Positions 3,001-6,000 of a stretch of DNA of 7,625 bases are shown piece by piece. The DNA comes from a virus (lineage: Duplodnaviria; Heunggongvirae; Uroviricota; Caudoviricetes), in IMG/VR virus record IMGVR_UViG_2778261660_000014, positions 1-7,625 of that record, one strand, 5' to 3'. How positions within the stretch are numbered: the first letter of the stretch is position 1; each line of letters opens with the position of its first letter. Made by a program: the position numbers.

Positions 3001-6000
3001 GAACCCGAAAAATGTGCTGTTTGCCGTGGTGTGGATGCAGGGGGAATTTGATTTTGGCGGTACGCCGGCAAATCACGCAGCACAGTTTGGTGCGCTGGTT
3101 GATAAATTCCGTGCAGACCTGGCGGATATGGCAGGTCAGTGCGTCGGTGGCTCTGCTGGCGGTGTTCCCTGGATATGTGGAGATACGACGTATTTCTGGA
3201 AGCAGAAGAACGAATCCACGTACCAGACGGTGTACGGCAGCTATAAAAACAAAACGGAAAAGAATATCCATTTCGTACCGTTCATGACCGATGAGAACGG
3301 GGTGAATGTGCCGACGAACAAACCGGAAGAAGACCCGGACATTCCGGGTATCGGATATTACGGTTCGAAATGGCGTGACAGCTCAGCCACCTGGACGTCA
3401 CAGGACAGGGCGAGCCATTTCAGCGCCTGGGCACGCCGTGGGATTATTTCCGACCGTCTGGCAACGGCGATTTTGCGCCATGCGGGAAGAGTGGCGCTAA
3501 ACGCGGGGGCATCATCGACAGTATCAGAGGTGCGCCCGTCATCGCCTTCCGGTGCAGAAGCCACAGGCGTCACAACACTGCTCTCTTACCTTGCCAGCGA
3601 GTCAGAGGGAAGCCTGAAAGTACAGGGATGGTCAGCCAGTGGCGGCAGGGCAGAAGTGGTCAGCGATGCGGAGGGAACCGGAGGTAAGGCAGTGAAGCTG
3701 ACCAAGGAGGCCGGTAAAAGCAGCTGGGTGCTGGAGTACGCCGCGGGCAACGGTGCGGCTCTGTTACAGAAAGGGGGGCAGATTCGCTGCCGCTTTAAGG
3801 TTTCGGGAGCGCTGGCTGCGAACCAGTATGTTATGGCGTTTTACTGGCCGGTATCTTCACTGCCACAGGGCGTTGCCCTGACCGGAGACGGGGGGAATAA
3901 CCTGCTGGCAGCGTTCTACATCCAGACAGATGCAAAAGACCTGAATGTGATGTACCACAATGCGAAAGTGGCGACAAACAACCTGAAACTGGGAACCTTT
4001 GGCGCATTTGATAACGAATGGCATACGCTGGCTTTCCGCTTTGCCGGGAATAACAGCCTTCAGGTGACGCCGGTTATTGATGGTCAGGATGGCACACCGT
4101 TCACGCTGACGCAGTCACCGGTCAGTGCATTTGCGGCGGATAAACTGCATGTGACAGACATTACCAGGAATGCGACTTACCCGGTACTGATAGACAGCAT
4201 TGTGGTGGAAGTGAACAGCACAGACACTGCGGCATGATAAAAAAACCGCCAGCGACAGGAATGGACGCTGGCGGTGGTGATACCTATGGAGAAAAAATAA
4301 AGGAACGATACTTTCGTACTCTGGTTTTTTAATGAAAACAGTTCTTATTGTCAACAATAACGGAAAGAAATTATGACATTTCTGAACCAGTTAATGCTGT
4401 ACTTCTGTACGGTGGTCTGTGTGCTGTATCTCCTTTCGGGTGGATACCGGGCCATGCGTGACGTCTGGCGCAGACAGATTGACAAAAGGGCCGCTGAGAA
4501 AATCAGCGCCAGTCAGTCAGCCGGAAGCAAACCCGAAGAGCCGCTCATTTAGCGGCAACTTTCTTAATCACATCTTTCGACGAGAAAATCCCATGTCAGA
4601 AATTACATCCCTGGTCACTGCTGAGGCAGTGAAGGAAGTCCTGCGCTCTGAAGAAGTCCTGAGCGCACTGAAACAAAAACTTCGCCATAACCTGGAAGCG
4701 CGTCTTGATGCAGAGGTTGATGCCATTCTGGATGAGCTGCTTGGTGTACAGGCAGAGCCACCGACTGAAGCGGGAGATACCACCGCAGAGAGCGGTGAAG
4801 TTCAGCCTGAATCACCGGTCGCCGATGCGACTGAACCTCAACCCGAATCGGTCATGATGCTGTAACGGGGAGTCAGGGCCATCAGTAAACAGCTGCTGGC
4901 CTTTTTCATGTTGTGAGCTTCCGGATAACGGGAGACGGGGTATGTACCAGATGGAAAAAATCACAACAGGTGTGTCATACACCACGTCAGCGGTGGGAAC
5001 GGGCTACTGGTTCCTGCAGTTGCTGGACAGGGTTTCCCCGTCTCAGTGGGCGGCAATAGGCGTGCTGGGGAGTCTGCTGTTTGGTCTGCTGACGTACCTG
5101 ACGAACCTGTATTTCAAGATTAAAGAAGACCGGCGTAAGGCGGCGCGGGGAGAGTAAGCTGATGAGCAGGAAATTCCGCTATGGTTTATCAGCGGTAGTT
5201 CTGGCGCTGATTGCCGCAGGTGCTTCTGCGCCTGAAATCCTCGACCAGTTTCTGGATGAAAAGGAAGGTAACCACACCACGGCATACCGTGATGGTGCGG
5301 GGATCTGGACCATCTGCCGTGGTGCCATTCTGGTGGATGGTAAGCCTGTTATTCCTGGCATGAAGCTGTCAAAGGAAAAATGCGACCGGGTTAATGCCAT
5401 CGAACGTGACAAGGCGCTGGCATGGGTGGAGAAAAACATCCGGGTGCCGCTGACCGAACCCCAGAAAGCGGGGATCGCGTCATTCTGTCCGTACAACATT
5501 GGCCCCGGTAAGTGCTTCCCGTCGACGTTTTATAAACGAATTAATGCAGGCGATCGAAAAGGTGCCTGTGAGGCGATTCGCTGGTGGATTAAGGACGGTG
5601 GCAGAGACTGCCGTATCCGTTCAAATAATTGCTACGGTCAGGTCTCACGGCGTGACCAGGAGAGCGCGCTGGCGTGCTGGGACATCGACAGATAGCAGAA
5701 TATTTTCCTGAAAAATGACGTTGGCCAACGCGGGTGGATAACACGAAATCCTGAAAACTGGTAAAACCTAAGTGAATAAAAGTAAAAACCCCGTTTGTTG
5801 GCAGCAAGCGGGGTTTTGTGTTTTCTGACCTTGAGTAAGGCAAGGGAGAAATTATGGGTAGGGAGGTACTTTCCCTGTGAGGAAGTATAAAAGATTCTTT
5901 CTGAGGTTGTCCATTATGAAAGGCATTGAAGTGGAGACGCCAGCCAGTCTGGATTTAACAAGAGCGGCAGCTTTTGCCATTCGTATTGTGGCCATTGCTG

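Follow-up and report, generated by a model that had tools for sequence, protein, structure and literature searches.

A predicted leftward small RNA gene between nanS-p and the lysis genes of a Stx2-converting phage

AsxR (EcOnc02) has been described as a 54-nt, Hfq-dependent small RNA (sRNA) encoded 282 bp 3′ of, and antisense to, stx2AB; its northern blots, 5′ end mapping and function have been published, as has the convergent arrangement of EcOnc02 and EcOnc27 3′ of stx2B (Tree et al. 2014, PMC4104026). Other sRNAs occupy a slot further along the late region. PasC of enteropathogenic Escherichia coli (EPEC) E2348/69 is a northern-validated, Hfq-dependent RNA of 79 nt encoded on the minus strand (1290909->1290832), and PasA (743499->743415), which also has a minor 236-nt form ending at 743264, is found in a comparable intergenic region (Pearl Mizrahi et al. 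2021, PMC8550237, Table S6). The same work identified EcOnc51 and EcOnc52 as the homologues of PasA in enterohaemorrhagic E. coli, and EcOnc52 had been detected by Hfq crosslinking (Tree et al. 2014). In Shiga toxin (Stx) phages, pasA/pasC are flanked by a sialic-acid esterase gene and by holin and lysozyme genes (Zhu, Shabalina and Storz, bioRxiv 2026). Here we analysed a stretch of 7,625 nucleotides (the window) from IMG/VR record IMGVR_UViG_2778261660_000014, which is the late region of a Stx2-converting lambdoid phage. Two hairpins in it, at 4238-4274 directly after the esterase gene nanS-p and at 2094-2118 after stx2B, look like terminators for leftward transcription, and a first-pass annotation had stated that no leftward gene exists there. 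We are fairly confident that a leftward sRNA gene within the late operon has its intrinsic terminator, and probably also its 3′ module for Hfq binding, at 4238-4274, while 2094-2118 is the terminator of AsxR itself and was already known.

Orientation of the two hairpins

On the plus strand, the nanS-p stop codon is followed by T4238, an A7 run (4239-4245), the stem arm CCGCCAGCG (4246-4254), an 11-nt loop (4255-4265) and the second arm CGCTGGCGG (4266-4274). The stem is perfect over 9 bp, 8 of them G-C pairs, and A4245-T4275 is a possible tenth pair. The bases 3′ of the second arm (TGGTGATACC) hold T at 3 of 8 positions and form no T-run; read on the minus strand, 4239-4274 is a hairpin followed by U7. 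At the second site an A7 run (2094-2100) precedes GCCCGA/TCGGGC (2101-2118), a 6-bp stem with a 6-nt loop that the terminator scan of the window reported as a minus-strand terminator. Taking an intrinsic terminator to be a GC-rich stem-loop plus a U-tract, both sites have one on the minus strand (9 bp and U7; 6 bp and U7) and neither has one on the plus strand. The geometry described in the first-pass annotation, a 9-bp GC hairpin with an A-run before it and no T-run after it, and the same minus-strand-only arrangement at 2094-2118, was therefore correct at both sites. The region of the larger hairpin folds at -19.6 kcal/mol (z -5.5) on the minus strand and at -22.6 kcal/mol (z -6.2) on the plus strand. 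Since both strands form the hairpin, its direction is set only by the T-run.

The standard terminator scan, which has a loop limit of 8 nt, misreported the main hairpin as a spurious 5-bp sub-stem because the 11-nt loop exceeds that limit, and a scan of our own was used instead. When perfect stems of 8 bp or more with a minimum of 6 GC, loops of 3-12 nt and at least 6 T in the following 8 nt were sought in the window and in 1000 dinucleotide shuffles of it, the window contained one such site (4247-4273, minus) against a mean of 0.004 per shuffle. A relaxed version with a 6-bp stem found three distinct sites (40-62 plus, 2101-2118 minus and 4249-4271 minus), compared with 0.047 per shuffle. The combination of hairpin and T-run at the two sites is far beyond chance.

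The identity of the 2094-2118 hairpin is clear. The Rfam model of AsxR matches the minus strand at 88.1 bits (gathering score 63) over its full length (1-53), and 53 of 53 positions equal the consensus. The distance agrees as well, given that stx2B ends at 1813 and 282 bp further is 2095, next to the AsxR 3′ end at 2096. The site does not differ from AsxR of Sp5, with which it shares its sequence, its strand and its location about 282 bp 3′ of stx2B. Because the flagged hairpin is the AsxR terminator, a leftward gene does exist at this place, and it is a curated one. The accompanying statement that all nearby genes are on the plus strand holds for protein-coding open reading frames (ORFs) and fails for RNA genes. 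AsxR is unrelated in sequence to the unit at 4238-4319.

Other features were seen around AsxR. Its 3′ end and that of EcOnc27, an STnc100-family sRNA, are 2 nt apart, with the terminators back to back, and the T5 and A7 runs at their junction are part of a perfect palindrome, TTTTTACA/TGTAAAAA (2083-2098). The strongest plus-strand terminator of the window (2172-2195; a 10-bp stem with 7 G-C pairs, then TTTCGTATTT) stands ahead of nanS-p and overlaps the likely AsxR promoter (-10 TAAAAT, 2159->2154; -35 TTGCGC, 2183->2178).

Anatomy and conservation of the predicted gene

A minus-strand unit occupies the space between the end of nanS-p at 4237 and the start of the DUF1378 gene at 4373, with the geometry of PasC and EcOnc52, and its parts are listed in Table 1. 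The predicted sRNA is about 81 nt long (4319->4239, minus) and, as it contains no AUG or GUG, it is considered non-coding. Its 5′ end is predicted at about G4319 by analogy with PasC, whose mapped 5′ end follows the corresponding hexamer by 7 nt, and with Esr41. An 80-aa minus-strand ORF (4115-4357) was rejected as a leftward protein gene; the hairpin is inside it and it runs antisense into nanS-p.

Table 1. Coordinates of the predicted sRNA gene and of other features of the window
Feature	Position	Strand	Remarks
U7 tract of terminator	4239..4245	-	A7 on plus strand; predicted sRNA 3′ end near 4239, 2 nt from nanS-p stop
Terminator hairpin	4246..4274	-	9-bp stem, 11-nt loop
Predicted sRNA body	4275..4319	-	weak 5′ hairpin, then U-rich single strand UUUAUUUUUUCUCCAUAGG with Esr41-like motif UUUUCUCCAU
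Predicted sigma-70 promoter	4326..4354	-	-35 TTGACA 4354->4349, 17-nt spacer, weak -10 TAAAAA 4331->4326
AsxR (EcOnc02) anti-sRNA gene	2148->2096	-	Rfam RF02703; terminator is hairpin 2101-2118 plus U-run 2094-2100
STnc100-family sRNA (EcOnc27)	1888-2093	+	Rfam RF02076, 206.9 bits; convergent partner of AsxR
StxS (EcOnc15), last ~70 nt	1-68	+	ends at tR′ terminator: hairpin 40-62 plus T6 63-68
Three tRNAs	231-482		
stx2A	573-1532	+	
stx2B	1544-1813	+	
nanS-p esterase	2300-4237	+	stop TGA 4235-4237
DUF1378 gene	4373-4552	+	followed by holin, endolysin and Rz genes
ORF	7360-7584	-	convergent with ORF 6964-7278 (+)

The hairpin followed by poly-U is the usual 3′ Hfq-binding and stabilising module of enterobacterial sRNAs, and the same double function would be expected here. 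In the proposed pathway, TTGACA-17-TAAAAA would be recognised by the RNA polymerase of the host, with initiation near 4319, about 7 nt further downstream. Transcription would proceed through the U-rich seed and end at the GC hairpin with its U7 tract, 2 nt short of the nanS-p stop codon. The sRNA would in this way be made from a promoter of its own, as is the case for AsxR, the Pas sRNAs and HnrS. With a T-run on just one side, the terminator would act in a single direction: the leftward transcript would be halted before it became antisense to nanS-p and stx, and rightward late transcription would pass. The same hairpin would also form in the late mRNA, where a secondary role is possible.

Conservation was assessed with 80 IMG/VR loci encoding relatives of the nanS-p C-terminus, which together with reference loci and the window gave 84 sequences with an esterase 3′ end. 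All 84 have an A-run and a GC hairpin directly after the stop codon and, at a distance of about 100-135 nt, TTGAC(A/T) on the minus strand, which is TTAAC in one locus. Addition of PasA and Esr41 resulted in 27 distinct sequences with at least 7 stem and loop designs. In each of the 27, a T-run of 6-8 follows the stem on the minus strand, compared with 0-3 T in 8 nt on the plus strand. The stems show compensatory changes (CAGCG/CGCUG, CAGU/ACUG, CAGCA/UGCUG and CAGUA/UACUG), and among the IMG/VR sequences of the window type only L013 carries a change that weakens the stem. Whole-family MAFFT alignments placed several 5′ arms out of register, and a stem table anchored on the U-run was used instead. 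Across 13 representatives with a mean column identity of 50%, TTGAC does not vary, and it is found at the same distance in PasC, PasA, EcOnc52 and Esr41. The 4100-4600 segment is 100% identical to that of phage BP-4795 and present in 307 phage records, and the 4200-4400 segment was found in 996 of 5,426 complete E. coli genomes. Sakai Sp5 has nanS-p split by IS629 but retains an undamaged sRNA unit behind the esterase stop, with an A-run over the predicted -10 region that is one A shorter (5 instead of 6).

Relationship to the Pas sRNAs and Esr41

Near 4238-4274, too, the claim that no leftward gene exists finds no support in the sister prophages, in which this slot holds the leftward PasC, PasA and EcOnc52. 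The SASA esterase stop at 1290830 is 2 nt away from the 3′ end of PasC, the 236-nt form of PasA ends next to the esterase stop at 743265, and EcOnc52 of Sakai Sp4 adjoins the stop of the ECs1088 esterase, its reads from crosslinking, ligation and sequencing of hybrids (CLASH) ending in ...GTCGCTGGCTCTTTTT. The Pas/EcOnc52 units and the window unit have in common a leftward orientation, a location with the SASA/nanS-p esterase stop on one side and the lysis genes on the other, and a related terminator (GCCAGCG...CGCUGGC, then U7 and AU) that adjoins the esterase stop. Direct alignment of the window minus strand with the Pas units showed the same TTGACA distance, an RNA of ~80 nt and a related terminator that runs into the esterase stop. 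Global identity of the window sRNA is 59% with PasC (z 3.6) and 54% with PasA (z 2.4), compared with 74% between PasC and PasA. The two classes differ in the body and seed region, where the window sRNA cannot be aligned with PasC/PasA with confidence, and BLAST searches with Pas sequences would probably miss the window variant. They also differ in how they are known: expression and Hfq dependence have been demonstrated for the Pas and EcOnc RNAs, whereas for the window unit, known from its sequence, we infer transcription by homology and treat the exact 5′ end, Hfq binding and targets as predictions.

A covariance model was built only from PasC, PasA, EcOnc52 and a second unit of prophage PP2, with no window-type sequence included. 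Its top match in the window was 4237-4273 on the minus strand (22.1 bits, rough E 0.006), and the model retrieved only Pas-type and window-type terminators; the alignment was too uniform for covariation statistics. The second-best match in the window was 37-72, the tR′ terminator of StxS. The second PP2 unit was observed in E2348/69 (L001:2364-2600, minus), where two leftward units, PasA and an EcOnc52-like unit adjoining the esterase stop, stand in tandem. Read-through of the weaker terminator of PasA (GUUUUUUU) to this second unit would explain the minor 236-nt form.

The body of the predicted sRNA resembles a different RNA. The Rfam model of Esr41 (RF02676) matches 4237-4314 on the minus strand, ending in the U-run, at 28.1 bits, with E values of 0.039 over the whole window and 0.001 when 201 nt are searched, and the two RNAs are 64% identical (z 4.3), with the identical 10-mer UUUUCUCCAU. 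Esr41 (EcOnc14, an sRNA of the SpLE1 island of enterohaemorrhagic E. coli; Sudo et al. 2014) and the window unit share a TTGACA-17-nt promoter, a small 5′ hairpin, a U-rich single strand, a CCGCC.GC/GC.GGCG terminator, U7 and the AUCA after it; in Esr41 the promoter is TTGACA-17-TTATAT, followed by the Rfam start. They differ in context, because Esr41 is located in SpLE1 near iha and ter without an adjacent esterase gene, and the window unit adjoins nanS-p. The bases after the Esr41 terminator (L004:1048-1125, Sakai SpLE1), UUUUUUUAUCA, are identical to window 4235-4245, where UCA within AUCA is the esterase stop TGA read from the other strand. The sequences hint that Esr41 in SpLE1 may derive from a prophage esterase-sRNA junction. 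Zhu et al. (2026) reported that hits of the Esr41 model are frequent near pasD, and these hits may correspond to the window-type element.

Esr41 represses chuA by pairing close to its ribosome-binding site (RBS) (Waters et al. 2017). In agreement with that report, RNAduplex paired Esr41 UUCUCCAUGGGG with the chuA RBS CCUCAUGGAGAA over 12 bp at -25.3 kcal/mol, a value equalled by 2% of shuffles. The window sRNA gave -16.8 kcal/mol with chuA, no better than shuffled controls (19% of shuffles as good), and since it keeps only an 8-bp core (UUCUCCAU:AUGGAGAA), shared targeting of chuA is no more than a possibility. A broader scheme can be drawn from these likenesses, although we hold it to be unlikely. 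A functional, unnamed Esr41 paralogue with the UUUUCUCCAU seed would reside next to nanS-p in about 300 Stx1/Stx2 phages and repress iron and haem targets, such as chuA, that overlap with those of Esr41; together with AsxR, which de-represses chuS, it would form a pair of sRNAs flanking nanS-p that tune the chuAS haem-uptake operon, and Esr41 would have arisen as a copy of the phage cassette that moved to SpLE1.

Alternative explanations and other late-region RNAs

The hairpin at 4246-4274 might act chiefly in the late mRNA transcribed rightward, as a stabilising 3′ structure or a site of processing behind nanS-p, and the A-run and minus-strand features would then be incidental. The plus-strand RNA does fold it at least as well as the minus-strand RNA, its location right after a stop codon is a common one for mRNA-stabilising stem-loops, and the variants L080 and L042 have an additional pair that reads G-U in the plus-strand RNA but A-C in the minus-strand RNA. 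To that extent the first-pass suggestion of a stabilising stem-loop for plus-strand mRNAs may hold. It leaves unexplained a T-run of 6-8 that all 27 variants have on the minus side and none has on the plus side, and a minus-strand TTGAC, the -35 core, that is invariant and at a fixed distance. Furthermore, the homologous units are discrete leftward RNAs of ~80 nt, and Esr41 keeps the same module without an esterase gene upstream, so that we judge a predominantly mRNA-serving hairpin very unlikely. Still less probable is that both hairpins are pure insulators that yield no RNA product of their own and block leftward transcripts straying in from downstream morons or from the host before these run antisense into nanS-p and stx2. 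Their orientation fits such a function, leftward genes and promoters exist further right in such phages (the minus-strand ORF at 7360-7584, and bor in Sakai Sp5), and insulation is a real consequence of any terminator at these sites. At 2094-2118, however, the idea is refuted by AsxR, a defined 54-nt RNA, and at 4238-4274 the conserved -35 about 110 nt upstream and the homologous discrete sRNAs point to a dedicated transcript. The proposed blocking of antisense transcription into stx/nanS-p is then true as a by-product, in that the sRNA promoters are kept from reading into nanS-p and stx2B. The remaining suggestion of the first-pass annotation, termination of an unannotated antisense RNA, was essentially right for 4238-4274, but the RNA that ends there is better called an intergenic sRNA gene convergent with nanS-p, and it is probably trans-acting.

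It is also conceivable, if quite unlikely, that 4238-4319 is a decayed, non-expressed remnant of the Pas/Esr41 type kept only by its position between conserved genes. The weak -10, the variable length of the A-run over the -10 region among close variants, and the absence of the unit from the EcOnc list and the CLASH reads listed, in spite of its being carried by Sakai, would agree with decay. A remnant would not be expected to keep a perfect hairpin, at most weakened in its stem, and a U-run of 6-8 nt in every window-type copy, nor to be as widespread as the phage records and genomes counted above indicate, and the -10 of the validated PasC, TCAGAA, is even weaker than TAAAAA. Several observations nevertheless weigh against an expressed sRNA gene of the Pas/Esr41 type. 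The -10 lacks the conserved final T, and for this reason the consensus promoter scan of the window did not call the minus-strand promoter at 4326-4354. The mature 5′ end of PasA was reported to arise by cleavage of a longer transcript (Zhu et al. 2026), so the conserved TTGACA may not be the sole start point. Homology to the Pas sRNAs is limited to the -35 and the terminator module, the match of the Pas-type model covering only positions 43-87, its terminator half. The 28.1 bits obtained with the Esr41 model are far below its gathering score of 102, which by the Rfam criterion places the unit outside the Esr41 family, and genuine Esr41 scores 108.6 bits. G-U wobbles give no verdict on the strand, as L070 favours minus and L080 and L042 favour plus. 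The Hfq crosslinking and analysis of cDNA (CRAC) table of Tree et al. (2014, Table S2) has no EcOnc at the Sp5 site, although the Sakai copy is 99% identical, and the CLASH tables of Waters et al. (2017), searched by gene name and by sequence, have no read with the window sRNA among those listed. The sequence of the window sRNA occurs in no full text among the papers searched by sequence, so that these three sources provided no evidence of expression for the window variant, and the intergenic region after nanS-p is unannotated in the public records inspected.

The gene order of the window is given in Table 1. Over about 83% of its length, the window shares 97-98% identity with Stx2a phages, TL-2011c being one example. 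A CLASH read of EcOnc15 (CTCCCCCAGTGGCTGGCTTTTTT) equals window 46-68. EcOnc50 was described in Sp5 as a minus-strand RNA of ~78 nt on northern blot that is destabilised without Hfq (Tree et al. 2014, PMC4104026); its position in the window is estimated at about 507-575 (minus), antisense to the stx2A leader, by applying an offset of +142 taken from an AsxR CLASH read. At this estimated placement EcOnc50 would be the third leftward RNA in the window. Between the convergent ORFs 6964-7278 (+) and 7360-7584 (-), at about 7310-7336, there is an A5-hairpin-T5 element (AAAAAGCGACTTTAGTGGTCGCTTTTT) that looks like a true bidirectional terminator, unlike the one-way elements at 4239-4274 and 2094-2118.

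HnrS (EcOnc10/11/12; Poudyal et al. 2026) resembles the unit after nanS-p in being a short sRNA with an intrinsic terminator within prophage late genes, where it occurs in several copies, and in Sp9 and Sp10 it shares its strand with the leftward anti-sRNAs EcOnc03 and AgvB1. It differs in lying about 5 kb from the anti-sRNA and in having been reported in Sp9, Sp10 and Sp12 and not in Sp5; on these two grounds, position and reported prophages, HnrS was rejected as the identity of the 4238-4319 unit. HnrS shows that sRNA genes embedded among late genes are a general feature. With leftward sRNA genes in lambdoid late regions already established (AsxR/AgvB, PasA/PasC and HnrS), the paradox of terminators facing the wrong way is resolved. 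The annotation gap that remains is the conserved Esr41-like sRNA unit after nanS-p, which is named in no paper searched. If expressed, it would add a regulator to the lysogenic cargo of Shiga-toxin phages and would link Esr41, regarded as an sRNA of the SpLE1 island, to the family of the PasA/PasC slot. The 4238-4319 unit is best described as an unannotated addition to the prophage sRNAs of the esterase-lysis slot, a mosaic in which a Pas-like promoter and terminator flank a body resembling that of Esr41.

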